Virus record (IMG/VR): IMGVR_UViG_3300046167_000883
Coordinates: 49,712 to 113,711 of that record
Length of the DNA: 64,000 nt
Origin: a virus
Reading direction: 5' to 3' (one strand)
A program made the translations under genes and the position numbers. Positions 1 through 59,697 of the stretch are shown here, piece by piece (position 1 is the stretch's first letter; each line of letters begins with the position of its first letter). The notes under the pieces are model-generated. The model was not told where the DNA came from. It did not search any database and saw only the letters and a program-made list of their open reading frames with translations.

Positions 1-340
1 CTTCTAGTTTTATTAATTTTTTATGGTTTTCTCTTTGAGAGGGTAAAGTAATTTTAGTTAAGGAAGACTTTAAATTCTCTATAAACTTTTTCTTTTCTTG
101 TATCTCTCTTTCTTTTTTGTCGTCCCACATTCCCTCTTTAAATAATTCATCTAAAGACTCCTGCTCTGTGGGCAAGCCCCTCTGTTTTGCCTCTACTATA
201 TAGATTTTTTTATTTAATTCTATTCTTCTCGCGTCATCCTGAAAAAAATGCTTAACATAAATGGGGCCAAAGCTTGACTCCAAGACAGTGACCCCATCAA
301 ATATCTCTATGACTATATCGGCTAAATTATCTTCATTCAT
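1..340 (-). CDS. hypothetical protein, truncated by window edge (not in ORF track)
   Basis: ATG at 340 overlaps the end of the upstream ORF; open frame MNEDNLADIVIEIFDGVTVLESSFGPIYVKHF... runs to position 1. Confidence 0.75.
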   Translation of the reverse strand, partial: MNEDNLADIVIEIFDGVTVLESSFGPIYVKHFFQDDARRIELNKKIYIVEAKQRGLPTEQESLDELFKEGMWDDKKEREIQEKKKFIENLKSSLTKITLPSQRENHKKLIKLE

Positions 341-1058
341 TCTTCTCTAAGAATGCTTTAATATCTTTTTCACTTACTGTGTTGTTGTAGAACCAGTAAG
401 ATACTACGGCTAAAAATGTCTTGAGTGCTTCTTTTTCAATTTCGTCACCCCCTTCATCCTTCTCGTAAAGATCTTCTAGTTGATCTTCGTATAAAATACC
501 ATCAAAGAAGTTTTCCTCTTCTCCATCTTTTAGTTTTTTGGCTAATTGAATAGTGTACCACAAAAGCATCGATCTTTCCGCTCTTGCATCTGCGGTATGC
601 TCATAAACACCTTGCATAGCAACTTCAAGTTCTGCAAGCTCCTGGCGCAAAGATACAAGTTCTGCTTCTAACTCTTCTACTTTTTTTTCTTCTCCCTTTG
701 TGGCGGTGAGAAGTTGAATTTCATTGGATAGTTCGTTACTTCTTTGTAGCTTGCGAACCATATCCTTCATTTCGTCTTCTGTTAGTGGGCCGCCAGTATC
801 GGCATACTTCTTAATCATCATTGACTTGGTGACGATTCCACGCTTTACGTTTTTACTTAGCTCGATTGCGTATTGAGCTTCACCCTCATCAATAATTCTT
901 CGCGTAGGCTTTTTAACAAGAAACTCAATCGGAGTTTTAACCGTTTTATTTTGTAAAACAGTTTCCATTTCTCCAGTTTCTTTATTTTTTCGTTCTACTT
1001 CTACCTTTTTCTTTTCTTGTGTATTAAGAGTAAACTTATAAATATTTCCTTGTGCCAT
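333..1058 (-). CDS. hypothetical coiled-coil protein, possibly tail assembly chaperone
   Basis: 241-aa ORF with central coiled coil; lies beside tail genes; function from context only. Confidence 0.5.
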   Translation of the reverse strand: MAQGNIYKFTLNTQEKKKVEVERKNKETGEMETVLQNKTVKTPIEFLVKKPTRRIIDEGEAQYAIELSKNVKRGIVTKSMMIKKYADTGGPLTEDEMKDMVRKLQRSNELSNEIQLLTATKGEEKKVEELEAELVSLRQELAELEVAMQGVYEHTADARAERSMLLWYTIQLAKKLKDGEEENFFDGILYEDQLEDLYEKDEGGDEIEKEALKTFLAVVSYWFYNNTVSEKDIKAFLEKNE

Positions 1059-1060
1059 AA

Positions 1061-1348
1061 TTATTTAAATTTAAATTCTACAGTGAGATTCTCCACCTCA
1101 CTATGATAATCCCTTAAAACAGAATTTCCAAGATCTAATACTTTTTTTCTATAATTTATAAAATAATCCTCATCAAAGTAATCAGCCATATTGATTAAAT
1201 CATGATACTCTTCTGGTAGACTATCATAAAGTTTCGCGAAATTAACTTCGTGATTAGATTGCAAATCTTCAAGTATATTCAAAAACGATTTGAATAAAAA
1301 ACGGATATAGTAATCCGAACGATCATTTAAAAAATCCTGCGCCTTCAT
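1061..1348 (-). CDS. hypothetical protein
   Basis: 95-aa ORF, GTGTAA motif upstream, tightly packed with next gene. Confidence 0.7.
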   Translation of the reverse strand: MKAQDFLNDRSDYYIRFLFKSFLNILEDLQSNHEVNFAKLYDSLPEEYHDLINMADYFDEDYFINYRKKVLDLGNSVLRDYHSEVENLTVEFKFK

Positions 1349-3349: not shown

Positions 3350-4456
3350 ATGGCTAGAAATCGAGTAATTTATCAATCCGAAGCTTTGTACGTCAGTGAA
3401 GATGCTTCTTCAACTGCGAAAACAAAGCACGAGCAACTCCAAAGAGTTCAATCCGCGAACTATTCCTTTAATATTTCGCGTCAAGACATCAATCAGTATG
3501 GTCAACTTGGTCGCATTGATTCTGTTGTTTTAGAAGCACCAACGGTATCTTTTGATACGAGCTACTATCTTGGCGATGGTTTCAATGAGGAAGCTCTTGG
3601 GTTTGGCGAAGATAGTGCCTTTGGGGTTGGTTTTGCCTCTGGTCACATGACAGCAACATCTGGCAAAAATCTTTACATTTTGACATCTCCAGAAGGTGTT
3701 GATACAATCCAAAATGATTCAGGTAGTTCTGTAATTGGAATTGGCAACGCTTATTTAACCGATTATACACTTGACGCTTCTGTTGGATCTATCCCAACGG
3801 TTTCTGTATCCTTTGAGGGCGCTAACATCGCAGCAGATAATGCTATTAGTGGTAGCGCTGCTGGTTATAGTGGATTTAGCACCTGCGCAATTAAAACAGA
3901 TGACGGAACTAAATTAACTAATGCAGTTACATTGCCAGCAGCTACAACTGGTGTAGGTTCAGTTACAGCGCTTCGTCCTGGCGACATTTCAATTGATTTT
4001 GGAGACGCTTCTTCACAGGCTGAAGACGGCCCGATTGTTAACATTGATTCAGATGAAGACGGCGCCCACATTCAAAGCGCGTCTCTCTCAATTGGGATGT
4101 CTCGTTCACCACTTGAAAGACTTGGAACTAAGTTCCCGTTTGCAAGAACTGTTGATTTCCCAGTAACCGCCTCCCTTAGTGTTTCTGCTATCGTCAATGA
4201 AGTTACGGCTGCAAACCTTGCCGATATTATTAGCGGTCAAGATGCAACTACTATTCAAGTGACCTTTAAAGACACTAACGGAACTGCTGCCGCTTCCTAC
4301 AAGCTCGTTGGCGCAAAACTTGATTCAGAATCCTTTAGTTCTGCAATTGGTTCCAACAAAACTGCTGATCTAACATTCTCAGTTCAAATTGGTGGTCCAA
4401 ACGATACAACTAATAATATTCTGTTCTCTGGAGCAAACTCAACTACTCCATTTTAA
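3350..4456 (+). CDS. major tail tube protein
   Basis: 368 aa, S/G/A/T-rich and acidic; internally duplicated tube-type motifs (RVQSANYSFNISRQDINQYG / HIQSASLSIGMSRSPLERLG); followed by a strong terminator. Confidence 0.75.
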   Translation: MARNRVIYQSEALYVSEDASSTAKTKHEQLQRVQSANYSFNISRQDINQYGQLGRIDSVVLEAPTVSFDTSYYLGDGFNEEALGFGEDSAFGVGFASGHMTATSGKNLYILTSPEGVDTIQNDSGSSVIGIGNAYLTDYTLDASVGSIPTVSVSFEGANIAADNAISGSAAGYSGFSTCAIKTDDGTKLTNAVTLPAATTGVGSVTALRPGDISIDFGDASSQAEDGPIVNIDSDEDGAHIQSASLSIGMSRSPLERLGTKFPFARTVDFPVTASLSVSAIVNEVTAANLADIISGQDATTIQVTFKDTNGTAAASYKLVGAKLDSESFSSAIGSNKTADLTFSVQIGGPNDTTNNILFSGANSTTPF

Positions 4457-4522: not shown

Positions 4523-7500
4523 ATGGCAAGAAATAGGACAATCTACCAATCAGAGGCTATTTATGTTAGCGATAATATTAATTCAATTACTAAATCAGAA
4601 CATAAAAACATAAGTAGGGTACAATCTGCAAATTATGGATTTTCTATTAATAGAGAAAGGGTTAACCAATACGGCCAACTTGGTGAAATAGATTCTATTG
4701 TAGTTGAGGCGCCAAATGTTGACTTTGAAATGTCCTATTATCTCACCAATGGGGATAATGAATACTTTTTAAATTTGGATACTGGTTATGGCGGCTTTTT
4801 AAAAAATCAAATAATAAGTTCTGGCCAAAATATCTACATCGCTAACACAAAAGAAGGTTCTGATATAAACGACACAAGCGCCAATGACTTTAATGTCATT
4901 AGTATCGGCAATGCGTTTGTAACAGATTATACAGTAGATTTTGGCGTCGGCTCCCTGCCCAAAGTAAATGTCGGATTCTCTGCTTTAAATATTTCCTCTC
5001 AAACAAATCTAACAAAAACATCTGGTCATTTTGTTGGTATTGAAAACGCGGGTGTTAATCCACTGAACGGAGTTAAAAGCACACAACAAATAGAAGTTCT
5101 AGCTGAAATTAATCAATCTGGACAAAGCGCAATTCGTCCATCCGATACATCCATAACAATCACCCCAACAAAAACGCTTGGGGATAACGATTCAATATCA
5201 ATCCTCTCAACACTTGATAGTGGCGCACATATTCAGACAGCTTCGCTTAATGTAAATCTAGATAGAACAAGTTTGCAAAGATTGGGTAGTAATCTCGCTT
5301 ATGCTAAAGTTGTAGAACCTCCTACAAATGCCACCGTTTCAATTAGCGCTATAGTTAACGAAGTTAAATCTTCATCTCTTTCTGATATTTTAGATCACTC
5401 AAACGAATATACAATCGAGATAGAATCAGTAGATCCAGACGGATATCAGTTATGTAAGTATTCTTTAGTTGGTGCAAAATTAGACTCAGAATCTTTTGGC
5501 TCTGCCATTGGATCAAATAAAGTTGTTGATTTGACTTTTACAACTCAGTTGGGCGGAATTGGTCAAACTAACTATAATATGTTTTTTGAGAAATATGGGT
5601 TCTTGGATTTCTTCCCTTCAGCAGCCGCCGCATATTCTCTTAGAAATTTAACCGCAGACTTTGATCAAAAAATTGTTAGAGTTCGTAGAGAATCTGACAA
5701 CTCTGAAAGAGATTTTACCGAATACGATATTAAAAACGGCACAATGGTTGATTGGGTTAATAAGCAAGTTATTCGCCCATTAGATATTCGAAAATTGGAT
5801 GACGCAAATGGCAACCGTCCAGATACAAACGATTTTATTGATACTCCCGCCGCCGCTTATTCTCTTCGTAGTTTAGGGGAGAACCAAGCAAATATAACAA
5901 TTGACGATTCTAGCGATGAGAGAGACGGGGAAACTGGAAAGTTCGTAGTACAGACGCGCCGCAACGTGGACGGAGCCACCAAGAGCTTTACCGCTGACGA
6001 GGTTACTGACGGTACGCTGGAGAATTTTGTAAGTACTGGTGAGGTTGTTTATTCCAGCGACTTCAGCGTGAACGCAAACAACGTAATCCACAATGTTGGT
6101 GCAACCAAATTAAGTGTAACTGGAAACAATGATGGAATAAGTGACGGCTCCGTCACTAAGGACAATGTACTGAAGGTTGAAAACATTGGTGATGTTCCTG
6201 CTGCCCCGCAGCTTAGAATTAACACCGATGAGTACGAGGACTCAACAAAGGGTTCGGTTACCTTTACTTATTACGTACCAACTGGTCATCCTATTGTTGG
6301 CAACTACTGGCACATAGGTGCTTCCTTGGCTGTTGATGGAACTGAGACATCTTACTCTCCTGCTGGTGTTCAGATTGTAGGAGGTGTTTGGACTACAGCT
6401 ACAGTTGCTTACGAGAACAAGCCAAGTACAAAACGATTTTTAACAATCATTGACGAGGAAGTAGCTGACGGTACTGCACCTGCATTTATTCCAGAGGGTG
6501 ATGTTGGTGACTTCTATTACATCAGTGAAATCAAAGTGTACCGCAACGAGGAGCTAGGGCTTCCTCTTGACCAAGCTACAGGAGCAGCAGCGGCTTACTC
6601 CCTGCGTAACCTTAGCTCAAGCTACACTGGTGATGTTGTAGAGGTACGCCGTAACGTGGACGGGGAGACTGAGGGCTTTACCGCTGCCGAGGTTACTGAC
6701 GGTACGATGGAGAAGTGGGTCGAAGGTTGGGAACTTTATACACCCAGTACCAAGACGCTTATAAATGAGCCATACTGGGATTTGATTCCTACTGATAATC
6801 AAAACTTTCAGATAATAAGTAACAATGCTGACTCCGAAAGTGCAAGCTGGCGGCAAGTTAGCTTGGTTAATTCGCAAGACCTTAGAGTTGGAAAAACCCT
6901 AGTTACATTCGATGTAACGGTTAATAGTGGTACACTTAGTACTGGCAACACGGACACTTCACTTTCTTTATACGGAAGGGATGGTTCTTTAGATGGCAAT
7001 ATTTCTGATATTAAGCAGCTTAGTGAAGGGTTTAATTCGCATATACTGGAAACCGTTGACAACGCATTTGGTCACGTTCCAGATATTTTCTTTTCCAGCG
7101 GACCAAATAGTAAGTTTGACGTAACAATCTCCAACCTCAAGGTCTACAAAAGCGTCGTCAACGAGCTTCCTCTTGACCAAACAAACTCTTATTCCTCCGT
7201 AACCTTTACTGGGACTTGGGCTGAAGCCAAGGCTCACGCTGAGGCTAACGGGGGGAGACTTGCTGTTTTAGATACGCAACAAAAAATTGATGCAGCCAAT
7301 AAATATTTACTGTCCTTGGGAAGCTGGGGGACTCATTGGATTGGGTTAAGCGACATTGATACCGAGGGTTCATTTACTTGGATAACTGGCAAGGGACTTA
7401 CCGCGAACCAATGGAAAGACGGCGAACCTAATAATGCTGGAGATGAGGATGTTGTTGAAATTGTAAACGGTGACACTTCAACTGGTGTGCGCGGTTGGAA

Positions 7501-10500
7501 TGACAGTAAAGTAACAACTATAAGAAACTTTTATTTGTTTGAAACGCAGGAATCCAAAGCAGCTTACTCCCTGCGTAACCTTAGCTCAAGCTTCACTGGC
7601 AATGTGGTTGAGGTACGCCGTTCAAGCGATGATGCATACACGGAGCTTTACGGCATCCGAGGTTGCTGATGGTACGCTGGACGGATTGGGTGAATGCGGA
7701 GATTGTTCACTATGAATCCGATTTCAGTGAAAATACTAATGGGTGGAATGTAACTGATGGGTCACTGTCGGTGTCAGATGGGGCTATGGTTCTTGCGCCT
7801 AATACGAGTTCAACTACTCATTTTGCGAACAGATCCTCTAGTCTTCCCGTAGGTAAAAAACTTAGGGTCACCTTTGATGTAAAGATTCCAAGCGGTCAAT
7901 CTATTGTTACTGGATTTAGAGCCACTGAAGTTAGCGGCGCTTTAATCAAATATGTTACCAGTCAAACTCAGGGTGAGTTTGTTAGCTACTCAGAAGAAAT
8001 AACTCCAACCAACACTGGGTTAATAAGATTTTTTGCCGCCACAAACACGGGCGGAGGCGTAACATTCAGCGGTAATGACTCAGAAAAGCTAATCATTAAA
8101 AACATTGTCGTAACAGTCATTGATGATGACGGACACGTCAGTACTTGGTACGACCAATCAGGCAGCGACAATCACGCAGTGCAGACGGATACTGCAAAGC
8201 AGCCTAAGATTGTTGAGGGTGGTACGCTACTAAAGGATTCCAATAATAATCCAGAGGTTGTGTTTACTAGAGGTGATGCTCAATTCCTGACAGCTTCATC
8301 ACCCATAGCATTTAATGACGTATTCTTTAAGTTTAGACGTACCGATGCGACTAACGCGACCAACGGTATACTTACTGAAGCATCCAGTGGAGTATACCCC
8401 TACACTTATATCCATCACTCCAGTCAAACATTTTCGTTTGATGGGAATGCAAGTGACACGGTAAACTTATCCTTTAATGGTCAGTACGAGGAAAACCAAA
8501 GTACTGACAAGGGTGGGCTTGTTACTATTGATGACCACTTAGTTTATCTAAACTACACAAGCAATCCAGATGCCATCAGCGATATTGGTAAGTTGTATAA
8601 TGGCTCCCCTATTTATGGTAGCTTTGGCGCAGGTGAGTTTATTTTCTACGACTCCGACCAGTCAACAAAGCGCAGAGCTATTGAGGAGAACATCGCTAAT
8701 CACTACGACATTTCCCTAGCAGCCTTCTCGCGGGATGGTACAGTCAAAACTTGGTACGACCAGAGTGAAACCAATGGTGTACCTAATGCCAATCACGCAG
8801 TGCAGACTGACCCTACGAAGCAGCCTAAGATTGTTGTGAATGGGAATCTGTTGGAGGATGGTGTCACATTTGACGAAGCCAATGAAACAGAACTCAAAGT
8901 TACTGGTGACCCAGTTATTACTGCGGACTATACTGGTACTTATAGTGCATTCAGTATTCAAAAGATTAGCAATAGTGAGTCTGGTTATTTGTACGGGAAT
9001 GCATCTCCATCGGATGGCTCTTCAATTTATAATAATGGTTCTAATTACGCGGCGACCAACAAAAACAATGCGGCACTTGATGAAATAAGTAAAACCAGTT
9101 CCAAAAATTTACTGTCAGCTGTGTATAATAATGGTGACGCTGGGCTATTAGTAAACGGTGATGGGACAATGGTCGACCAGGGTACTTATGACTTTAATGC
9201 TGGGACATCTGATTTTATTATCGGAAATAGAAACGGAGGGTCAGAGGCATCTCACTATTTAGATGGAACCATTGCTGAAATCATCATCTACAACTCCGAC
9301 CAGTCAACAAAGCGCAGAGCGATTGAGGAAAACATCGCTAATCACTACAACATTTCTCTAGCAGCCTTCTCGCGGGATGGTACAGTCAGTACTTGGTACG
9401 ACCAATCAGGCAGCGACAATCACGCAACTCAGACTGACCCTACGAAGCAGCCTAAGATTGTTGATGGTGGTAGTCTATTAAAGTTAAATGGTAAACCATC
9501 TATTGATTTCTCTACAGTTGATGGCTACCTTGAACTTAGCCAAGAAGTGGATACTAGCAATAAACCCTGTTCAATTATTGCGGCTACTGAACCAACAAAT
9601 AAAGCTTTAATTGGTCAAACTTCAAATCGTCGTCTAGTTTTCAACTCTTCTGATGCTAGATTTGGATTAAGCGTTTCAGCGATAACTGAGGACTACCCTT
9701 CGGTAAGCGGAGGTGCTGTGTTTACGGCTATTCACAACGGAACAACAACTGCTCCTAATGTTGTAATTTACGCAAACGGAAGTGCCTCAACAACAAATGA
9801 TTCAAATCAAGGTTCACCTATGACCGTTGGTGTAATTGATTTCATAGGGGTTAACCTTGGTTCTGCTGTTATTTCTTATTTTGATAAAAAATTACCAGAA
9901 GTAATCATCTACAACTCCGACCAAACAGCCAACCGTACAGCTATTGAGGCTAACATAGGTGAGACCTACGGCATTACTGCAATCCCTGCTGCTAACGATA
10001 CAGTCAACGGCTTCGTGCAGACGTGGTACGACCAGAGCGGTAGTGGCAATGACGCGGAGCAGACGACTGCCTCGAAGCAGCCTAAGATTGTTGTGAATGG
10101 CACTTATCTAGGAGAGATAAAGTTTGAGAATGGATTGTACGTACAAAAGACAGGTCTTAGTCTAAGTGGACCATTTTCTACATTTTCTTTATCCAACGCT
10201 AACTCTCAACATAATGGAGCGTTATTAAATTTTGGTACTAGTTTTTCACAGCAATACCGAAGTAACCTAAGCCTCCTATTGCAATATGGTGACACGAACT
10301 TCTCAAGTGCAGGCGCGTATACCGTAGGGGAGCAAAACGTAATGAGCTTCATCTTCGACACAACTGGCTTAGGATACTACAATGGTACAGAAGTAATTAA
10401 TGATGCGACTACTGGTGCTACCGCAACTCAATTTAGAGTCGGAAATAGTCCGTTTGGTCTAGATGGGGATGTTAAGGAAATCATCATATACAATTCAAAC

Positions 10501-10566
10501 CAATCAGCCAATCGTCCTGCTATTGAAGCTAACATCGCCAACCAGTACGGCATTACCCTATCTTAA
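4523..10566 (+). CDS. tail-tube paralog fused to ~1,650 aa of nested GH54/LamG-like domains, CBM-like inserts and a C-type lectin (one gene split by two +1 insertions near 7637 and 7680)
   Basis: First ~355 aa align with 3350..4456 (MARNR.IYQSEA.YVS ... LVGAKLDSESF.SAIGSNK..DLTF). Removing the two extra bases restores DDATRSFTASEVADGTLTDWVN, matching the sister repeat DGETEGFTAAEVTDGTMEKWVE, and joins ORFs 4523..7669 and 7663..10566. Confidence 0.8.
7180..7552 (+). other. C-type lectin domain within the decorated tube protein
   Basis: TWAEAKAHAEANGGRLA...WIGLSDIDTEGSFTW...WKDGEPNNAGDEDVV...WND: canonical WIGL, EPN and WND motifs. Confidence 0.9.
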
Positions 10567-17447: not shown

Positions 17448-19299
17448 TTAAATAAACATTGGGGTGAATCCATAATTCGCCTCCTCTGGGACATTCATCA
17501 TATCATAATAAATACTCATACCCCAGTTACCTAACACCAAAGCTGAATACGAGTCCTTTCTTGGTCTATCCACACCTTTTTGTCTTTTTAGATTACTTGG
17601 CAAATCAAAACTTTGAGTACCGCCAGCGGATGTAGATACCTGTATTAAAGCACATTCAGCCTTTGTTAGATCAATCATATCTTTCTGGTGTTCAATAAAA
17701 TCAATCATCTTGGCGCCAACATTTTTTTCATCTTCGTACTTTGAAAATTTTAAATCTTTGATTGGGATTTTTTTAGCTTTTTGTATTGAATAGTTATCAT
17801 CCATAGCTGTAGCAGCAAAGTATAGCTTCTTTCTATCAAAAGCGGTTTGTAACATTTCATTAGCATTTCTAATCCAAACTGATACTGGCTTCCTCAAGTG
17901 ACATATCTTTTTATTAGAAAGGTTGTAGTTTCTTCTCGCTTCTTTTAAATCTTTTACATATTCGTGCGGATTATCCAATCCCGCTTCAAAAACACCAATT
18001 TCTAGTTTCTCTTTCTTGAAGATATCACTTTCGTTACAAGAGTTGATAAATTGAACCCCACCATTGTAGTCTCCCACAATCATAATAATATTGAAGTGGT
18101 CTAAAAGATATTTAAAGTAAATTATATGCTTCTTTAGGTTTGTCCCAGGAAGTGCGTAACTATGAACTACAACACCCTTCTTTTCTTCTGGTAAAAGTTT
18201 TATAACCTGAATAGCAAAGTCGTCAGAAGTTTCTGATTCAGACCAAGATGGGTCAAACGCCAAAACATATTCTGCACCCTCTTCTCCAGCTACCTCAACT
18301 GCTGGAGATTCGCCGTCCTCAATAGTACATTCGGCCATTTTGCTGATTTTAAAGTAACCTGCGCTGTCATCGGTAAACTGAGCGTTAAACTCTCGATCAA
18401 TCTGAGATTGGCTCATTGTACCCCTTGCTTGAGAAATCAAATTCTCATCATACAAAGCTTTTGGAGCGCAATCATAACTAAATTGCATAATACATCTTCT
18501 ACCTTGATTCTTTCGCACCAGGGTTGAAAATCATATTCTCATAGGCTTGGTACATTTTATAGAGATACTCAAATTTGTAGCATGCGGATGATAGACCAAT
18601 CATTTTATTCGACGGCCACTCCGTTCTTTCCTCTTCTGTCATTTTGCCAGCCTCAATCATGGCGTCTTCTGCGTCTTTGATTTTTTGCCTTTCCGTTGGG
18701 TTCTCTACAACCGCTAGGAACGGCATAATAACTTCATTCAATACCTTTTCTGGCATAAGCAAAAGCTCATCAATAATAATACGCTGAAAACGAAAGCCAC
18801 GAAGCTTTTCGCCGTCACCAAGTGGCAAAGCAGTAATACGACTCTTGCCAATTTGCATCGACCATTCATCGTTTGATTTGCTTACTTTACCAATACATTG
18901 TTGAAACAATTCCGCTTTCTTGTCTTGTGCTATATCTTCAATCTTACGAAAGATCATCTTAGACTGACGGAACGATTTTGAAATGATTCCAATATGTACA
19001 CCCTGATTTAACATCGCGTCCAGTAAAGCAAAAATGCCAGTAGAAAAAGACTTAGACATACCACGAGACCAGATTCCCAAAAAGTAATCATTCTCCATCA
19101 TAGCTTTAACAGCCATATGCTGGAATGGGAAAAGCTCAATACCAGTCAACAATTCGGTGGTGAAGGTTACGTTTTCTTTTAAAAATTTATATAACCAAAT
19201 TTTAGCTTTTATGTCTTCTAAATACCCTTCAAGTTCTAGAACCTGCTGGTTAACAGGCTCTCTTTTTAGTGGCTTTTGATTTCCAATGTCCCAAGTCAT
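17448..19299 (-). CDS. terminase large subunit (one +1 insertion near 18510)
   Basis: PFQ motif, Walker A-like SRGMSKS, KLRGFR..IIIDE Walker B, LSSA motif III; nuclease half YVLAFDPS...DDF...RKDSYSA. Confidence 0.9.
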
Positions 19300-49399: not shown

Positions 49400-49842
49400 T
49401 ATTCTTTTCTCCACGTTCATTCCATTCCCAATCTTTACGATACTTAGCGACTACTTCAACTAAATTGTCCCATTCATCCCAGTCTAAAGCAAGACTACGA
49501 CCATCATTCGTTTCGTCGTCGCCAACAATTTTCAAATACGATCCTGCGGCCTCATCATCGGGTCCTACTTTAATTGTATTGTAAATCGGATGCCAATCGG
49601 CACGATCTGATTTGATACTTACTTGTGTTATCACTTCTTTATTCATATTGAGTTTCGTTTGGTTTGTCTTCATATTCATATTCTTCTGCTTTTTCATATA
49701 TTGCTCGTTTTACTGAGTCATATTGATAACCAGCACACAGCATTAGTTGACGTATATAATCGAGGAATTCGATAGCAGAAAGATCATCGCCTTCTGTTTC
49801 AATAGAGATTTTATCTCTGTGTTGTTCTAATGTTATTTTCAT
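49383..49842 (-). other. two small hypothetical ORFs (49383..49697, 49639..49842)
   Basis: ORF track; co-oriented with neighbours. Confidence 0.55.
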
Positions 49843-52732: not shown

Positions 52733-53873
52733 ATGGAGCAGGAAATTAATAAAATTTTAAAAATAGATGAATTCTTACAGGATCGGGTTTTAGTTGACAA
52801 GGTTGACAAAAATATTTCTAGCAATGAATCAAAATTCATTATATCCGTTCTAGAGGAAATAAGTTATTTTAAAACTACTTTAAATAAAACTGAAATTTTA
52901 AACACGCTAAAGCTTATAGATTCTAACTTAGAATACGACTCTTACCATTTCAAAAACAGTGATATAGATTTTGTGTTAAAGTTGACCGAAGATGATGAAG
53001 ACAGCATACTTAAAAAAGAATTTGATAACCTTTCTTTGATCCAAGATTTAAACGTTTCTGCTAAACCGTTACATTTTGAAACCTTAGATTTTGACAGAAA
53101 AATAGATGTATTGATTGTTACTTTTGAACACGCTTTATGTTTTAAAGATTTATCAAAATCAGATTTAAATTTCAATATTAAAACAGTAGCTAACACTCTT
53201 TCATTTATCCACTGAAAACACGGTGACTGAAGAATTAGCTGAGACGAAAAGTTTTAAGGAAGAATTTTTTGCTTTAACTGATTATAAAAATAATTTACCT
53301 AAAGATAGATATAAAGGATTGATGAATAGTGAAGATTTTATGAATCACTTGCCAGTTTTAGAGACGTTAAAAAACGCAGTAAATGAAGAATTAACAGCTT
53401 TACCCAAAACACAAACCTGTTTAAATCACACAAATTTACATAAATCTAGAATTATGTATAGGGATAAATTTGTAAAGTTTTTAAACTTCCAATATGCGAA
53501 GAAAATAGATTGCTTATGGGATGTTTCTTTGTGTATATTTTACCTGGGGATAAGCAACTACCCAAAAATAGAAAAAGATTTTGTAACACAGTATTTAAAA
53601 AGTCACGACAAATTAAATATTTCGGGACCAGAATTTTTAGAAAAATTAAAAACTTACAAAAACACCGCATATAAACTTATTTTAATTAAGTTGTTATGCA
53701 ATTATTTTTATGAAGTTATTATTTTTGGCACAGATAGACCTTCTAAATTTGTTGATACGATTACTATTTATGAAGGAATAAGGGATGACCTTGCTTTAGA
53801 CCAAAACCGAGAAATAAAAAATGGATTATTGTTAAAGAAGGTTGATAAAATCTTCAATGTTTACTTTAAGTAG
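52733..53873 (+). CDS. APH/choline-kinase-fold protein with degenerate catalytic motifs (one +1 insertion near 53213)
   Basis: FVLKL......LKKEFDNL...AKPL; CLNHTNL...I...KFLNFQYA......DV; GTGTAA 10 nt upstream. Confidence 0.6.
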
Positions 53874-56800
53874 TTTTATCTACTTCGAAAAAGAAGTTTT
53901 GTAGAGTTGCCCCAGAGGATTCATCATCTAAGGAAAATTCCTTAAATCCGCTCTGATTGCTTACAAACTCCATAAACGCAATCGTTTTTTGTGATTGATT
54001 AATCTGGCCACTTGTGTTGAATATTTTATCCTGACCCACATAAAAATCAGTATTATAGGAACCGCTACCAACATAATTAAAACTTCCTTTGATAATATAA
54101 CTATTTTCGCTTTGCCAGAATATGCCACGTTGATTATTTAAATCTTGAGTAATTAGTTCGCCAGTTCCCTTGCAGATATAAACAGTATCAAACGATTGAA
54201 TACTTTGCTGTGATTCTAAAGAAGCTGATTCTTGTTCTGGTTGTTCATATACTATACCACCTAAAGCGATTCCACTACCGTAATGATCAAAGGGTATTAG
54301 AGTCAACACATCTGTATCGGAGGCTTCTGGCAAATTAATATATCTTTGGCCTTCGGCAAGAAATTCTGTTTTTATAAATTCAAGATTCCCAGAGGTATTT
54401 AAGTTGTAAATATTAATTTTTTCTAAATCATATTTGGAGCTAATTGAAACATCAAAATTAACTTTAGGGGGATTGAACACCGCATTTGAAATAATTGGAG
54501 CTGTATTCATAATATCCAACTGTGCAGTATGGTGGAGTTTTTGGTTTTTATCCTTTAATTCGAATTTTATATTTAAATTCCTTTTGACATTGCCAAATAG
54601 GTTCAGGTTATCCTCGTGGCTGAATCTAAATGTTGTAGATTTGTAGTTTTGTTTATACAATTCATCGTTGATATAAATATCTAAACTAGGGTCTGCATTG
54701 GGATTATGTGCCATATCCCCACCCCTCATGTCTTCTAATTTTAATTTAAAAATATAATCTTTTGTTTGGGGAACAATGGAACCTTGTCCAGTTAAACCTT
54801 CGGGAGAATAAGTGTTGGAATACTCGTTTTGTATATTTACTGATTTGATCAAGAAATGCTCTCTAATCTTAGCTGGTAAATCAATTCTAAAATTACTTTC
54901 TACACTTTTGCTTGATTCTGGGTTTCTTAGGGACGTAACATTAACTGTGTAATCGCCAGCCATAGAAAGATTTAAAATTTCATAATCTGTTTTTGGAGGA
55001 GAGGTTGTAACATCCTTTAAAAATTCGTGTGTGGTGTATTTGCCGTTTGGATAAATTAAACTGACTCTATATTTTAATTCGTTTCCTCCTAATTCCCCAG
55101 TGATAGTGCCTGTAAGATTATGACTGCCATATTCATTTTGTATTAGGAAATCTGTAAAACCTAATGGTTCTGGTGGCCTGTTGATTGTATTTGTTGGAAC
55201 GCCTATGTTGTATTGGGTTTCAACCAAATCAAAATCTTCTTGTTCTATGTAGGTGAATTTGTCGATCTGATATTCTAGCGCATTGACGTTATATTTATTA
55301 GCTTCTTCTTCGGTTATTTTGACAACTTTAAAAAAGTTTGTGTCCCTATTTTCTAACTCTATGTTGAAAAAGGACCCTTTGATTACGCCAGTAAAATCAT
55401 CATAACTTTGATCATTTTGGTCTATGTAAACCCTATGGGAGTTATCTTGTTCTTCAATACCTGTTATGATAAATTTGGTGATTTGCTCTTCATCTATTGA
55501 ACCAACCTTATCTAGTGGCACTACGCCGCTATAAATATTTTCGTCTACTCCGACTTCGGTAGCTCGATCGAATTTTATTAAATTATATAAAGCCTTAACG
55601 TCGGTTTGTTGTTTGTTGTTGTAGGTATACAAGCCGCCGTTTTCCCCTGTCACAATAGAGCCTGTTTTGAAAGAGTTTTCTAAATCAAGGTATCCCTGGC
55701 TCGTGTTTACGTCTAAGATTTTTCCATAATTAATTTCAAAGTTTTTAATTTCGTCTTCTATTTGTATTATGTCTCCTGGGGCTAGTAAGACTGCTTCTGG
55801 GCCAGTAGAAAAAGATACGGCTTCTGTTTCAAACTGATTACTAAACAGAATATATTTCGCCATTCGCCTTGCTTGAGATTTAGACGTAAGACCAAAACCT
55901 GTTTGCTTATTGACGCGTTTGCCATATTTACGCATTTTTTCTTCGTCTTCTACATACTCTACTTTTACTTTATAGTTGTCGTCTTTATCTAAATAAGGAA
56001 CTTCAACTCTTGTAAATCTAGCAGAAGAAACTATGTCAGCATAATTAAATACGCCGTCAAAAACATTTCCGTTATTGAATATTGCTTGGACATTCTTGGG
56101 GTTATCTATTGAAAAATTAAAAAAGCCACCATTCCAGTATGTCATCGCTCTAAACAATGATGCGATTTCGCCAATCACCTCAAAGGCATTTTTCTGTTCT
56201 TGGAGTATAAAGTTAGCGGAAAATCTTGGCTCTAAACCCTGTGTGGCATCTGGTACTCCATCAAAATAACCATCATCATCAACAGAGTCACAATATCTGC
56301 CCATTTCATATAGATGGAATATGTCTATGTCTTCCATGTCATCTAAATAATCTCCCAAACCGTTTGAGTGGTTTGTCATAAGATCGTATAAGATCCATGC
56401 TGGGTTATCTGTCCAAGCTAATTTAAATGAGCCATCCCACTCTCCGATGTAAACCTGCTCTTTGTTTGGCCCAAATTCAAAGTTTGTATCTTCTACGGCG
56501 TTGGAGGTCCCTTCAATTATGGCATGATTACCTCCAAAACGGTCTCTCATAGCTTGTCCACGAGGCGTATCAACCACTGTCCCATCCCAATGGTGCAAGA
56601 GTTGATTGTTTTTCTTGATTTTTAAATCCGCGATTTTCGAGCCATTAGGTATTCTATGAGCGCTGTTTTTATCGCCACCTATACAAAATTCTTCAGCGTC
56701 AAAAACTAAATATTTTCTGGGATTGGTGGTGCTGTTGTCTTCTGTTGATGTTCCAACCAATTCCCCGTTTACCCAAACTGTTAATGTTTGTTTAGTGCCT

Positions 56801-59697
56801 ATTAATTTAAGACTTATTTCAAAAACATTATCAGCATTATATTTACTACCGCCAGGCACATAATCTGCTATACTTATTTCTACATAATTAGGAGAGCCAT
56901 CACCATCTAAAATTTTACTTTGAATGCCGTGAGTGGTATTTTGATTCTGATACCATAGGGCTATATACTCTGTTGCGTGGCCATTTACATATCCATCAAA
57001 TATCCTTCCCCAGTTAACAAAACTTCCAAATTTAACTTTAACCAAAAACTCACAATTTTGTGTACCTAAATCAATTTTATTTGAAGCGGCTGCGTGGGTA
57101 GACCCATTAAAAGTTTGTATATTCCTCAAACCATACTTAGATGAATCAGAAACAAATCTCTTATCAGTGCCATTAGCAAAAAGTGGCTGATAATTTGAAG
57201 GCACGGCACACTTTTTTAGCCTCATCTCAAAGGTTCTATCTGGCGCTTGATTAAAAGATCTGGCGTCAATTACAGAACCAACAAGAGCAGAAAAAGGATA
57301 GGTGAAGTTTTGGGGAATCTCTTCTGTTATGTATGCAATAGATGCGTCTCTAGAAATTAAAACAGATTCTGTTTCGTAGGTTTTTTTGTAAATTTTTATA
57401 TATCTGTTTATGTTTTTCCAGGAATCATTTGGGAACAAATCTTCATTAAAGTCTAAGCTATATTCAGTAGCTAAAGCTTCTGTCATGCCCTCAATGTCAG
57501 AAACTTTTTTACCATTTAAATCTTTGTTTTGTGGCAAATCAACCACATCTAATTCTGTCATGTAGGGGGAAGTTATAACACCCTCAAACCTATATTCTTG
57601 TTTTCTTGTGTATTCGGCTAAATAAATTTCTTTTGGTGGAATACCTTCTGTAAGTGAAATTTCTAATCTACCCTCTTCTGTCTTTTCTGAATTTGGTATG
57701 TCTGTATGTATAGAAAATTCATTTGATAAAAAATATTCACCTTCTACTTCATACACACCTCTATATAAACCACCATCGAAATTTGCAGCCGTTCCTGAAA
57801 TAATTCCATTGGTTCCAATAGTTAAAGCAGCATTAAAATCAGCCAATTGATTTGCTGGAGTATATAAAACCTCTGGCGCTAAATCTGTACTTATTCCTGT
57901 GTAATTTAAACCACTACCAATAATTAAAATATTAACAATATTGAAAAACAAAGCGCCATTATCGCCGCTATTAATTCCAAAATTAGTTAACACGCTATTT
58001 TTATTTATATTTTGAAGATTTCCGTCTTGGTCATCAACATAAATACCGTTGTAGTTCGATAATGTGCCATTAGTTGGGCCAGTATTGTTGAGAACACGGG
58101 CTATAGAATTTGGACTAGATAGCTGCTGGCTTTGTATTGGGATAAAATGCTTAATAATTGGTTGGTTAGACGCATTAAGGCCGACTTCGAAAGCCGCAAT
58201 TTCTGCGGCAAGGAATGATTTATTTTCTGTATTAACAAAAAATCGATCATCAAAGGGAATCTCATCTCCTTCGAATCCTTGTATAACCTCAAATTCAATA
58301 AACTCTCTTAATGTTTTGCCTACATCTTCTCCATTGTCTTCCGTATCACTAAGGGAAGAGATCATAACAGTTGGTGTTGCTTTGGTTATTTGTTGGTTTT
58401 GTATTGTATGGGTATATCCATAAGCATCACTCTCTGTTGGGAGGTTTACTTGCCAACTAGCATATCTTCTACCCCCTCTTGTATCTTCGTTGCCATCGCC
58501 AACTTGAGCATCACCAGCATATTTTCTAAATCTGCCAAAAAGCTGTTGGTTAATATTAGTTTGAATGAAGCCTTTGCTGTAGTTACTTAATTTTGGTTGA
58601 AATTCACTTCCAAGATTATAATCAACATTAGCGTTTATATAGTTAAATTGAGAATCTTCGTCGGTTTTTAAAGAAGTATTTAATTTTTCACCTATAATAC
58701 TACCCTTTGCTGGAGAACTTTGATTTGCGACATGGGCAAAAGATATGTCATTCCCACTATAAACAAAAACATCATAACCGTTATCTATACCGCTTTGTAT
58801 TTTCTCACTAATGTTAGTATCGTTGTAAGCAACCAAGAATTTACCTGTTAAAAACTCGCCAGCAGAACCTGTTGAGACGTTATCTCCGATATAAAAATGT
58901 ATAAAACCTCCTCCGTGAAATCCAGAAGTGGGATAGTAATCTCCAACTTTATATGCAGGTGCGCTAGAAATATATTGGCCATTGCCAGTCATGAAAGATG
59001 GGGTAGCTAAATACAAATCTTCTGGAGCTTTAAATATTAACCCTTCTTCTGATTTTAAATATCTCTCAAATCCTTTTGAATCTTCGCCAAGGGAAATGTT
59101 TAGAGAAAATTCAGATTTTTCTCTTAGATAGACGGACCCGCTCTCAAAAATATTTTTAGTATCAAATTGTATAAATCCAAATTGACTAAAAAAAGATTTA
59201 TTCTGATTTATAGCCACAAGAAAATCTTCTCTAGAATTTTCTATACCATTAATTAATTCGTTATAATTTCCAAATTGTCCCTGAGTGCCTTGTATGGAGT
59301 TTAAATTGCCAGTAATGTTGTCTAAAGATTCACTTATAGATTGAGTATTTATTCTATCGACGTTTTGAATGTCTGTGTATCTAATAGATCTATTTAATTT
59401 TTGTGAAACTGAATGCGATTTTATTGGCGTATCGTTGTAATATACAGCTTCCAGAACATCTAATCCAAGCGCTTTTTCGCCATTTTTTTTTACCAAACCT
59501 TCAACTGGACCCTCGCAAATCAAGTCCAAATTACTTAAATAAGATATGCTTTGAAAAAGATCAGAGGCTTGGGGCGGTTTTAAATAAGCTTCGCCACCAG
59601 CAGTTCCCTTTCCTTTGCCGCCGCCAGCACCAGCGACAGAATCCAAACCAAGTTGATTTCTTATATTTCTGGCTATCCTTTTCCGTATGTTATTCAT
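53866..59697 (-). CDS. tail tip/host-specificity protein, lambda gpJ-like, with LamG insert
   Basis: DLICEGPVEGL, YPFSAL....DARSF...P.R, WDGSFKLAWTDNPAWILYDL, EPRFS.N, Fn3-like C-terminus. Confidence 0.9.
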   Translation of the reverse strand: MNNIRKRIARNIRNQLGLDSVAGAGGGKGKGTAGGEAYLKPPQASDLFQSISYLSNLDLICEGPVEGLVKKNGEKALGLDVLEAVYYNDTPIKSHSVSQKLNRSIRYTDIQNVDRINTQSISESLDNITGNLNSIQGTQGQFGNYNELINGIENSREDFLVAINQNKSFFSQFGFIQFDTKNIFESGSVYLREKSEFSLNISLGEDSKGFERYLKSEEGLIFKAPEDLYLATPSFMTGNGQYISSAPAYKVGDYYPTSGFHGGGFIHFYIGDNVSTGSAGEFLTGKFLVAYNDTNISEKIQSGIDNGYDVFVYSGNDISFAHVANQSSPAKGSIIGEKLNTSLKTDEDSQFNYINANVDYNLGSEFQPKLSNYSKGFIQTNINQQLFGRFRKYAGDAQVGDGNEDTRGGRRYASWQVNLPTESDAYGYTHTIQNQQITKATPTVMISSLSDTEDNGEDVGKTLREFIEFEVIQGFEGDEIPFDDRFFVNTENKSFLAAEIAAFEVGLNASNQPIIKHFIPIQSQQLSSPNSIARVLNNTGPTNGTLSNYNGIYVDDQDGNLQNINKNSVLTNFGINSGDNGALFFNIVNILIIGSGLNYTGISTDLAPEVLYTPANQLADFNAALTIGTNGIISGTAANFDGGLYRGVYEVEGEYFLSNEFSIHTDIPNSEKTEEGRLEISLTEGIPPKEIYLAEYTRKQEYRFEGVITSPYMTELDVVDLPQNKDLNGKKVSDIEGMTEALATEYSLDFNEDLFPNDSWKNINRYIKIYKKTYETESVLISRDASIAYITEEIPQNFTYPFSALVGSVIDARSFNQAPDRTFEMRLKKCAVPSNYQPLFANGTDKRFVSDSSKYGLRNIQTFNGSTHAAASNKIDLGTQNCEFLVKVKFGSFVNWGRIFDGYVNGHATEYIALWYQNQNTTHGIQSKILDGDGSPNYVEISIADYVPGGSKYNADNVFEISLKLIGTKQTLTVWVNGELVGTSTEDNSTTNPRKYLVFDAEEFCIGGDKNSAHRIPNGSKIADLKIKKNNQLLHHWDGTVVDTPRGQAMRDRFGGNHAIIEGTSNAVEDTNFEFGPNKEQVYIGEWDGSFKLAWTDNPAWILYDLMTNHSNGLGDYLDDMEDIDIFHLYEMGRYCDSVDDDGYFDGVPDATQGLEPRFSANFILQEQKNAFEVIGEIASLFRAMTYWNGGFFNFSIDNPKNVQAIFNNGNVFDGVFNYADIVSSARFTRVEVPYLDKDDNYKVKVEYVEDEEKMRKYGKRVNKQTGFGLTSKSQARRMAKYILFSNQFETEAVSFSTGPEAVLLAPGDIIQIEDEIKNFEINYGKILDVNTSQGYLDLENSFKTGSIVTGENGGLYTYNNKQQTDVKALYNLIKFDRATEVGVDENIYSGVVPLDKVGSIDEEQITKFIITGIEEQDNSHRVYIDQNDQSYDDFTGVIKGSFFNIELENRDTNFFKVVKITEEEANKYNVNALEYQIDKFTYIEQEDFDLVETQYNIGVPTNTINRPPEPLGFTDFLIQNEYGSHNLTGTITGELGGNELKYRVSLIYPNGKYTTHEFLKDVTTSPPKTDYEILNLSMAGDYTVNVTSLRNPESSKSVESNFRIDLPAKIREHFLIKSVNIQNEYSNTYSPEGLTGQGSIVPQTKDYIFKLKLEDMRGGDMAHNPNADPSLDIYINDELYKQNYKSTTFRFSHEDNLNLFGNVKRNLNIKFELKDKNQKLHHTAQLDIMNTAPIISNAVFNPPKVNFDVSISSKYDLEKINIYNLNTSGNLEFIKTEFLAEGQRYINLPEASDTDVLTLIPFDHYGSGIALGGIVYEQPEQESASLESQQSIQSFDTVYICKGTGELITQDLNNQRGIFWQSENSYIIKGSFNYVGSGSYNTDFYVGQDKIFNTSGQINQSQKTIAFMEFVSNQSGFKEFSLDDESSGATLQNFFFEVDKTT

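Follow-up and report, generated by a model that had tools for sequence, protein, structure and literature searches.

Chains that run outwards and then return to their base are familiar from flagellin (D0-D1-D2-D3), in which the outer layers are each made of an N-terminal and a C-terminal segment, the tip is contiguous and variable, and both termini lie at the base. Tail-tube proteins can carry an outward binding domain, as in the C-terminal Ig domain of lambda gpV and in SPP1 gp17.1*, and they occur in plain and decorated forms. Repeated insertion of one fold into itself has been described in the SI3 region of the cyanobacterial RNA polymerase beta' subunit, where a sandwich-barrel hybrid motif (SBHM) is nested in itself up to six levels deep, with branching hosts (PMC13114784, which refers to Alvarez-Carreno et al. 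2024 on this architecture). Here we describe a putative adhesin gene with likenesses to all three, found in a 64,000-nucleotide (nt) stretch of viral DNA (IMG/VR virus record IMGVR_UViG_3300046167_000883, positions 49,712 to 113,711), the whole of which we call the window. Two adjoining open reading frames (ORFs) on its + strand, 4523-7669 (1048 amino acids, aa) and 7663-10566 (967 aa), probably represent one gene for a virion protein of ~2013 aa, in which a paralog of a putative tail-tube protein would anchor a four-deep nest of GH54/concanavalin A (ConA)-like domains loaded with C-type lectin and carbohydrate-binding module (CBM)-like cargo, likely as a glycan adhesin. We give this reading as a whole a probability of about 0.72.

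A sequence-only reading of the window had proposed four copies of an N-half motif followed by four copies of a C-half motif, and a six-frame motif scan and family profiles both agree with this. The scan places AAYSLR at nt 5627, 5852, 6590 and 7559, WYDQ at nt 8146, 8752, 9394 and 10024, and IE.NI at nt 8680, 9322, 9943 and 10522, all on the + strand and within the two ORFs. Profiles trained on several hundred family instances detect four N-halves (E 1e-13 to 3e-25) and four C units of ~200 aa (E 3e-38 to 9e-51). The order is NNNNCCCC, that is, four N-halves and then four strictly tandem C units. Between successive N-halves lie, in turn, a linker of 30 aa, a module of 183 aa, and a module of 163 aa with a C-type lectin; a further module of ~140 aa lies between N-half 4 and C unit 1. 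The parts, with E-values from hidden Markov models (HMMs), are as follows.

4523-5590, + strand: N-terminal domain of ~355 aa, putative tail-tube-type virion anchor, paralog of the upstream 368-aa protein
5621-5761, + strand: N-half 1 (N1, outermost), followed by a conserved PLDI linker; HMM E 1e-22; docks on C unit 4 in a model
5846-6034, + strand: N-half 2 (N2), long-hairpin type with a 15-residue insertion; HMM E 9e-20; type matches the second N-half of relatives
6035-6583, + strand: inserted module A (~183 aa), probably beta-rich and CBM-like, judged by weak similarity to the tip
6584-6724, + strand: N-half 3 (N3); HMM E 3e-25
6725-7213, + strand: inserted module B (~163 aa), putatively CBM-like, with weak similarity to module A and the tip
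7214-7507, + strand: C-type lectin domain ahead of N-half 4; Pfam PF00059, residues 898-995 of the first ORF
7553-7695, + strand: N-half 4 (N4, innermost), frame-broken at ~7637 and 7679/7680; HMM and N3/N4 repeat spacing
7696-8121, + strand: tip module in the innermost loop (~140 aa), CBM_4_9-like by its language-model neighbours
8122-8721, + strand: C unit 1 (C1), partner of N-half 4; HMM E 3e-38; pairing from contiguity in tip-less relatives
8728-9363, + strand: C unit 2 (C2), presumed partner of N-half 3; HMM E 9e-51; pairing from the bracket rule only
9371-9981, + strand: C unit 3 (C3), partner of N-half 2; HMM E 2e-49; GH54 aligns over N2 to C3 in a relative with four of each half
10003-10566, + strand: C unit 4 (C4, outermost), partner of N-half 1 and protein C-terminus; HMM E 6e-46; N1 docking

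The lectin match exceeds the Pfam gathering score (E 1.1e-8, 36.3 bits against a cut-off of 22.6). Modules A, B and the tip have weak mutual similarity (E 0.007-0.017) and no Pfam match up to E 10; the language-model neighbours of the tip are named CBM_4_9 (score 0.93-0.94), which we treat as a lead only.

That an N-half and a C unit together form one GH54/ConA-like beta-sandwich is supported by profile and structure comparisons. In P0057, a relative with the order NNCC, Pfam PF09206 (the GH54 catalytic domain) matches residues 105-260 against profile positions 13-151 of 315 (31 bits, cut-off 25) and crosses the N/C junction without interruption. The same profile is above threshold in relative P0030 (28.6 bits), and its best score in the window protein, 23.9 bits in N-half 4 only, is under the cut-off. 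Relative P0020 matches PF13385 (38.6 bits). An AlphaFold model of P0055 (NNCC, 563 aa), built from 40 sequences, has a predicted local distance difference test score (pLDDT) of 77.9 and a predicted template modelling score (pTM) of 0.79. A structure search with this model aligned GH54 structure 6sxt_A to the contiguous inner domain (Z 23.9, root-mean-square deviation (rmsd) 2.7, 255 residues), and many ConA-like, CBM40 and LamG structures also match (Z 15-18), placing the model in the ConA-like sandwich fold. The resemblance to GH54 that had been noted in the pattern AA.S..R ... YDQSG.GN is therefore real at the level of fold and, in relatives, of sequence. In alignment A1, no residue is invariant in the domain core (188-330 of P0055), and the invariant positions all lie in framework strands; because of this, a conserved GH54-type active site is unlikely in the family, as far as sequence conservation can tell. 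Sequence searches of the PDB with the tube paralog, P0055 and the A1 profile gave no match at E<=1.

The sequence-only reading had also pointed to a protein at 24828 as an internal control in which the two halves are contiguous. The gene there (24828-26336, + strand) does hold a single N+C domain, but it is broken over three ORFs in frames 0->2->0, which makes it a weaker control than proposed. The first ORF (24828-25532) contains the N-half and the first C strand only, with the rest of the C unit in 25472-25741 and 25725-26333. The middle ORF carries a second WYD..QPLIV segment in another frame, so that the gene has two WYD strands, and the last returns to the first frame with the remainder of the C unit, ending ...INSYHKIY. 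Frame errors or decay of the copy would each account for this gene. Contiguous NC proteins serve better as controls, namely gp059 of S-CBS4 (see below) and 26 NC ORFs in genome and viral loci, as does the P0057 match to PF09206.

If each domain is interrupted by the next, N-halves and C units should behave like opening and closing brackets. We scanned 247 database proteins and reduced each to its succession of N and C, 196 of them being judged complete; a second set, fetched independently, comprised the ORFs of 78 genome loci and 23 viral loci, 80 of them complete. Balanced bracket words were found in 162/196 proteins and 70/80 locus ORFs (232/276 overall). Common words are NC, NNCC (97 proteins and 15 in the loci) and NNNCCC (57 and 15), and NNNNCCCC occurs twice among the 196 proteins. 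The expectation that homologs would have equal counts, with all N before all C, is in this respect well supported. For two, three and four pairs, all N followed by all C is one of 6, 20 and 70 possible arrangements, respectively. Equal N/C counts in a forbidden order were not found in any of the 276 complete proteins and ORFs; all exceptions are count mismatches. The last C unit forms the protein C-terminus in nearly all family proteins. In relatives, the last N is joined to the first C by 1-3 residues or by a module of 118-270 residues, which marks the innermost loop as a cargo site.

Nesting is not confined to simple depth. The branched word NNCNCC was found nine times, NNNCNCCC is also present, and the giants include NNNCCNNNCNNCCCNCCC (3508 aa, depth 5) and NNNNNCCCNCCC. 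Simple nesting is thus not the only mode of growth. In NNCNCC proteins (~1000-1170 aa), the loop of the single outer domain contains two whole domains next to each other. They occur in L028, L036, L038, L043, L047, L054 and L065 (Vampirovibrio/Melainabacteria) and in L007 and L009 (Ferruginibacter), on the chromosomes of predatory or particle-associated bacteria rather than in obvious phages. P0142 (3508 aa), P0148 (2601 aa) and P0176 (4241 aa) have balanced strings up to five levels deep that mix tandem and nested units. The family as a whole is large, with 11,734 representative clusters at E<=1e-3 and 790 at 1e-30, and is also found on bacterial chromosomes of Bacteroidota, Vampirovibrio, Bdellovibrionota and Planctomycetota. 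A megablast search of the 6-kb region against 50,697 phage records gave no match.

Structure models bear on which N pairs with which C. In the P0055 model, the ConA-like domain 4 of AbnA (5hon_A) aligns over 188 residues (rmsd 2.6, Z 18.5) in the range 28..558, which starts in N1, ends in the last C unit and skips the inner domain at 77-356; N1 itself has a pLDDT of 84-94 and is aligned rigidly with the last C. The AlphaFold model of P0096, a relative with four N-halves and four C units (100 sequences; pLDDT 59.7, pTM 0.60), aligns with GH54 over 235 residues (rmsd 2.9, Z 18.2) in the range 77..936, covering N2 and C3, ~580 residues apart, and with BoNT/D Hc lectin domains over 200-204 residues (Z ~13) in the range 23..1183, covering N1 and C4. 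The innermost domain (N4-C1) is contiguous. An independent model in BFVD, of a 644-aa viral relative, has the same overall arrangement (template modelling score 0.76). In these models, the predicted pairings appear in three of the four layers. Of the contacts proposed from sequence, those of N1 with the last C and of N2 with the second-last C thus find a counterpart in relatives, and the innermost pair is contiguous; the N3/C2 layer of P0096 is unmodelled.

We also folded N1 (residues 362-440 of the first ORF) and C4 (residues 775-967 of the second) of the window protein as two chains. Their interaction prediction score from aligned errors (ipSAE) was 0.96, against 0.01 for the best control; as a rough guide, since our own alignments were used, this mark is reached by 58/80 solved complexes and 2/110 mismatched pairs. 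The runs have at least 93% of contacts in common, with a partner pLDDT of at least 76. In the two-chain model, the AAYS of N1 (368-371) contacts E.II (939-942) and TWYDQS (787-792) of C4, and its VRVR (385-388) contacts C4 residues 784-789. As modelled, the docking shows strand complementation rather than specificity of pairing.

Taken together, we propose the following architecture. A tube paralog of ~355 residues would anchor the protein in the tail of a marine tailed phage of ~114 kb, and the remaining chain would be a single GH54/ConA-like beta-sandwich domain used four times recursively. The strand that ends in DGT...WV is joined to the strand G.V.TWYDQ by a short loop; this would be the socket, in which the next copy of the domain sits, with or without cargo. 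The chain would then run N1-N2-[module A]-N3-[module B + C-type lectin]-N4-[CBM-like tip]-C1-C2-C3-C4, with N4 + C1, N3 + C2, N2 + C3 and N1 + C4 as folding partners. In the model of the window pieces, the AAYSLR strand packs on the strands TWYDQ and E.I.Y of the C unit with which it pairs. Conserved DNA at the unit borders would allow recombination to add or swap layers and cargo.

Several observations weigh against this architecture or limit it. About 15% of the proteins judged complete have unequal N/C counts; these may reflect cut-off gene calls or missed divergent halves. The third layer of the P0096 model (N3 152-210, C2 492-713) has a pLDDT below 50, leaving the N3-C2 pair to the bracket rule alone; these two pieces form the layer that has no counterpart in the aligned three-layer relatives, which is compatible with the pairing. 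Pairings in the models were read from the first and last aligned residues and the aligned length, not from coordinates or contact maps. All N-halves are homologous to one another, as are all C units, so the docking of N1 cannot show that C4 is preferred over C1, and its high score may come partly from likeness to solved GH54 folds. In NNCC proteins, N and C types were co-inherited as (N2,C2) 47 times, (N2,C1) once, (N3,C1) 11 times and (N3,C2) 30 times, with many near ties; this tally is suggestive, is confounded by shared ancestry and is not used here as proof. The tail-tube identity of the anchor has no sequence match in Pfam, PHROGs or the PDB behind it, and the window sequence is out of frame twice, with no window-identical contig from the Logan assemblies bridging the first break. 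What we say of the specificity of pairing, of the oligomeric state and ligand of the protein, of its place on the tail and of its overall shape, for which the sequence-only reading had proposed a four-bead stalk, is inference.

The boundary between the two ORFs falls within N-half 4. The sequence-only reading had assumed two indels, and there are indeed two frame changes, each +1, at ~7637 and 7679/7680, both inside this N-half. The first frame makes sense up to ...RRSSDDA (~nt 7636), the next encodes the conserved TRSFTASEVADGTL, and the third resumes at TDWV. The spacing of the N3/N4 DNA repeat goes from 969 nt ahead of the first break to 970 nt beyond it, indicating one extra base in N4. 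With one base taken out at each break, N4 becomes colinear at every residue with the corresponding part of P0055 (...RRSSDDAEDSFTATEVADGTLTDWV). We also checked the frame in seawater samples using Logan contigs, which break at the repeated N-half. A near-identical contig running into the same tip (3 differences/320 nt) lacks the G at 7679, and all related seawater contigs crossing 7601-7681 are net one base shorter than the window. In relative P0031 (1507 aa), one ORF encodes the same N-terminal domain, with N-halves at the same positions. Since relatives are single ORFs and related seawater contigs lack the extra bases, we conclude that the two ORFs are most likely one gene encoding a single polypeptide; errors of assembly, or else changes of very recent date, are the most likely source of the breaks. 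We reject programmed frameshifting, which would need two +1 shifts within a beta-strand motif, separated by 43 nt and shared by no relatives.

Other genes in the window also look frame-broken, namely the 24828-26336 gene described above and the large terminase gene. The latter (17448-19299, - strand) is apparently split into overlapping ORFs 18499-19299 and 17448-18518, with a TerL profile match in the upstream one only and over part of the profile length; this may be another assembly frame error. A family member in a Flavobacteriales metagenome-assembled genome (L061:5884-9620) is similarly split into overlapping ORFs, NNNc and CC, which when joined give a balanced NNNCCC. This split was flagged by its N/C count, so the bracket check picks out broken genes.

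Two alternatives accept the nest and dispute the state of the gene. The gene could be a recently inactivated pseudogene, with nesting real in the family and non-functional in this phage. Two frame changes within 45 nt, the first bridged by no identical contig, are what such a history would leave; yet the gene shows no further sign of decay, each of the eight halves has a strong score, the motif is kept in the shifted frame, and the near-identical contig lacks the second extra base. We regard inactivation as unlikely. Slightly less likely still is that the frame changes are genuine and yield two polypeptides (the tube domain with N1-N3 and part of N4; the tip with C1-C4) that join non-covalently by split-domain complementation. 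The two breaks, the docking of the N1 and C4 pieces as separate chains and the comparable split in L061 (NNNc | CC) would all agree with this, whereas the position of the break inside N-half 4 rather than between units, the conserved motif encoded by the short middle frame, and a start codon for the second ORF that would be a TTG inside the motif are hard to reconcile with it. The single-ORF relatives and the related contigs without the extra bases point the same way, and the broken 24828-26336 and terminase genes suggest assembly error instead.

Two further alternatives concern the nest itself. Tail appendages are usually oligomers, and N-halves might pair with C units of a neighbouring chain in a domain-swapped fibre; the same strand complementation would satisfy the equal N/C counts, and the N1 + C4 model has the halves docking in trans. 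Swapping alone, however, predicts neither the strict order of all N before all C nor words like NNCNCC, the monomer models close every modelled layer within one chain (pTM 0.79), and the innermost domains are contiguous through a loop of 1-3 residues, making a swapped fibre improbable, by a small step more so than two separate polypeptides. Lastly, N-halves might be independent small modules, such as a linker or stalk repeat, and C units complete LamG-type domains, with the equal counts incidental. Some LamG structures do align to a C unit alone (PAPP-A on 403..563 of the P0055 model, Z ~15.6), and a few family proteins have C units only. We disfavour this most strongly and think it very unlikely, as equal counts recur at one, two, three and four units and in complex words, PF09206 and GH54 structures span N and C as one domain, and N1 is both confidently modelled (pLDDT 84-94) and rigidly aligned with the last C, besides the ipSAE of 0.96.

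The N-terminal anchor can be compared with its neighbour. Residues 1-355 (4523-5590) and the 368-aa product of the upstream gene (3350-4456, + strand) share 44% identity over 362 aa (E 4e-102). The nearest language-model clusters of this tube paralog carry PF18906 (Phage_tube_2) in 12-15% of their members (score 0.98), which is a lead only. A plain (3350-4456) and a decorated (4523-5590) paralog of a putative tail-tube protein thus adjoin, and suggest a tube in which a minority of subunits bear an appendage of 1650 aa. Pfam and PHROGs searches of the tube paralogs, modules A and B and most neighbouring ORFs returned nothing usable. The window is that of a phage: a gpJ-like central fibre is encoded at 53866-59697, and genes for RIIA/RIIB, a clamp loader and a terminase are present as well. 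The contig measures 113.7 kb, and seawater metagenomes contain related sequence.

Relatives carry the nest on other anchors and with other cargo. In P0048, it is fused to an N-terminal baseplate-wedge domain (residues 87-197), and in other relatives it sits on an N-terminal helix of 28 residues. A SASA sugar esterase domain (sialate-O-acetylesterase-type) lies exactly in the innermost loop of P0037 (205-446), and in P0025 and P0041 such a domain follows the last C at the C-terminus. The single-NC protein gp059 of S-CBS4 carries the annotation 'virion structural protein'. Framework strands are conserved and cores are variable; as the cargo is of lectin or CBM type, the window protein is likely a multivalent glycan-binding tail appendage (adhesin); glycan binding and tail location are here the steps that we infer.

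The repeats also suggest how the nest grows. The first C of NNCC proteins is closest to the second C of NNNCCC proteins in 77/96 cases, N1 is closest to N1 in 92/96, and the last C to the last C. Among the window units, N1 diverges most from the other N-halves and C4 from the other C units; N2-N4 and C1-C3 are closer among themselves. From these sequence relationships, new layers appear to have been added in the middle of the nest, from the inside. At the DNA level, N3 and N4 share a stretch of 64 nt with 91% identity, and the C1/C2 and C2/C3 junctions one of 129 nt, also with 91% identity (8634-8762 vs 9276-9404), compared with a protein identity of only 25-44% in the unit cores. Repeats of 88-91% identity at the C-unit borders comprise this pair and 8137-8235 vs 9385-9483. 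The border repeats are likely substrates for unequal recombination and cassette exchange.

Beyond the window protein, and with somewhat less assurance, we consider it reasonably probable that the family represents a self-hosting scaffold: a universal socket that takes further copies of its own domain, side-by-side pairs or foreign cargo (CBM, C-type lectin, SASA esterase), follows a bracket grammar to at least 5 levels and up to 4000 residues, and is used by phages (on tube, baseplate-wedge and short-helix anchors) and by bacteria (Bacteroidota, Vampirovibrio and others) for adjustable multivalent glycan-binding appendages. If the predicted topology is true, a large and almost wholly unannotated family builds long surface appendages by self-insertion of a lectin domain. 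For protein science, this would be a second and much more widespread natural case of recursive same-fold nesting, whose folding and evolution could be tested through its variable depth and defined socket. For phage biology, it would represent a portable receptor-binding module of marine phages and suggest how reach and valency are tuned, and for engineering, the N4-tip-C1 unit with its socket loop would offer a display scaffold with both chain ends at the base. Gene callers and domain databases now miss the N-halves and cannot pair them; a bracket check would flag cut-off or frame-broken members such as the window gene and L061.

How does this protein compare with described systems? Literature searches on nested or matryoshka phage receptor-binding proteins, GH54-like phage fibres and the Pan3 structure did not find a description of this family or its grammar. 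The catalytic domain of GH54 alpha-L-arabinofuranosidase B (1WD3, 6SXT; PF09206) has its beta-sandwich fold in common with the family (Z 23.9), and shows weak, above-threshold sequence likeness to P0057 from the N-half to the middle of the C unit. It differs in that identity is 13-16%, it is 315 aa long against ~250 aa for the unit, and it is neither interrupted nor nested. Among phage proteins, gp059 of the Synechococcus siphophage S-CBS4 (phrog_10356) belongs to the same family (30% identity in tblastn, where each of the four C units of the window matches it; PHROG E 5e-46), but is a single contiguous NC domain of 287 aa without nesting or cargo. The tailspike of cyanopodophage Pan3 (9vyh_p), a solved phage tail protein, has the same sandwich (Z 18.0, 209/269 residues on the inner domain of P0055), but is a single domain with no detectable sequence similarity to the family. 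Compared with lambda gpV and SPP1 gp17.1*, the decoration in the window is far longer (~1650 aa) and stands on a separate paralog, with the tube identity itself a language-model lead only.

In flagellin, unlike in the nest, the layers are different folds rather than copies of one domain, and the inner layers are helical. SI3 is like the window nest in that one fold is repeatedly inserted into itself, yet it consists of a small SBHM in a core enzyme, whereas the nest is built from a lectin-type sandwich of ~250 aa in a mobile appendage; also unlike SI3, nest depth varies from 1 to 5 over thousands of proteins, and foreign cargo occupies the same socket. Recursive self-nesting is thus not unprecedented, given SI3, and the out-and-back chain is known from flagellin, making the family a new variant rather than a new principle. 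What is new here is the GH54-like lectin sandwich fold, the fixed socket, the variable depth and branching in a very large family, and the use as a surface appendage of phages and bacteria.

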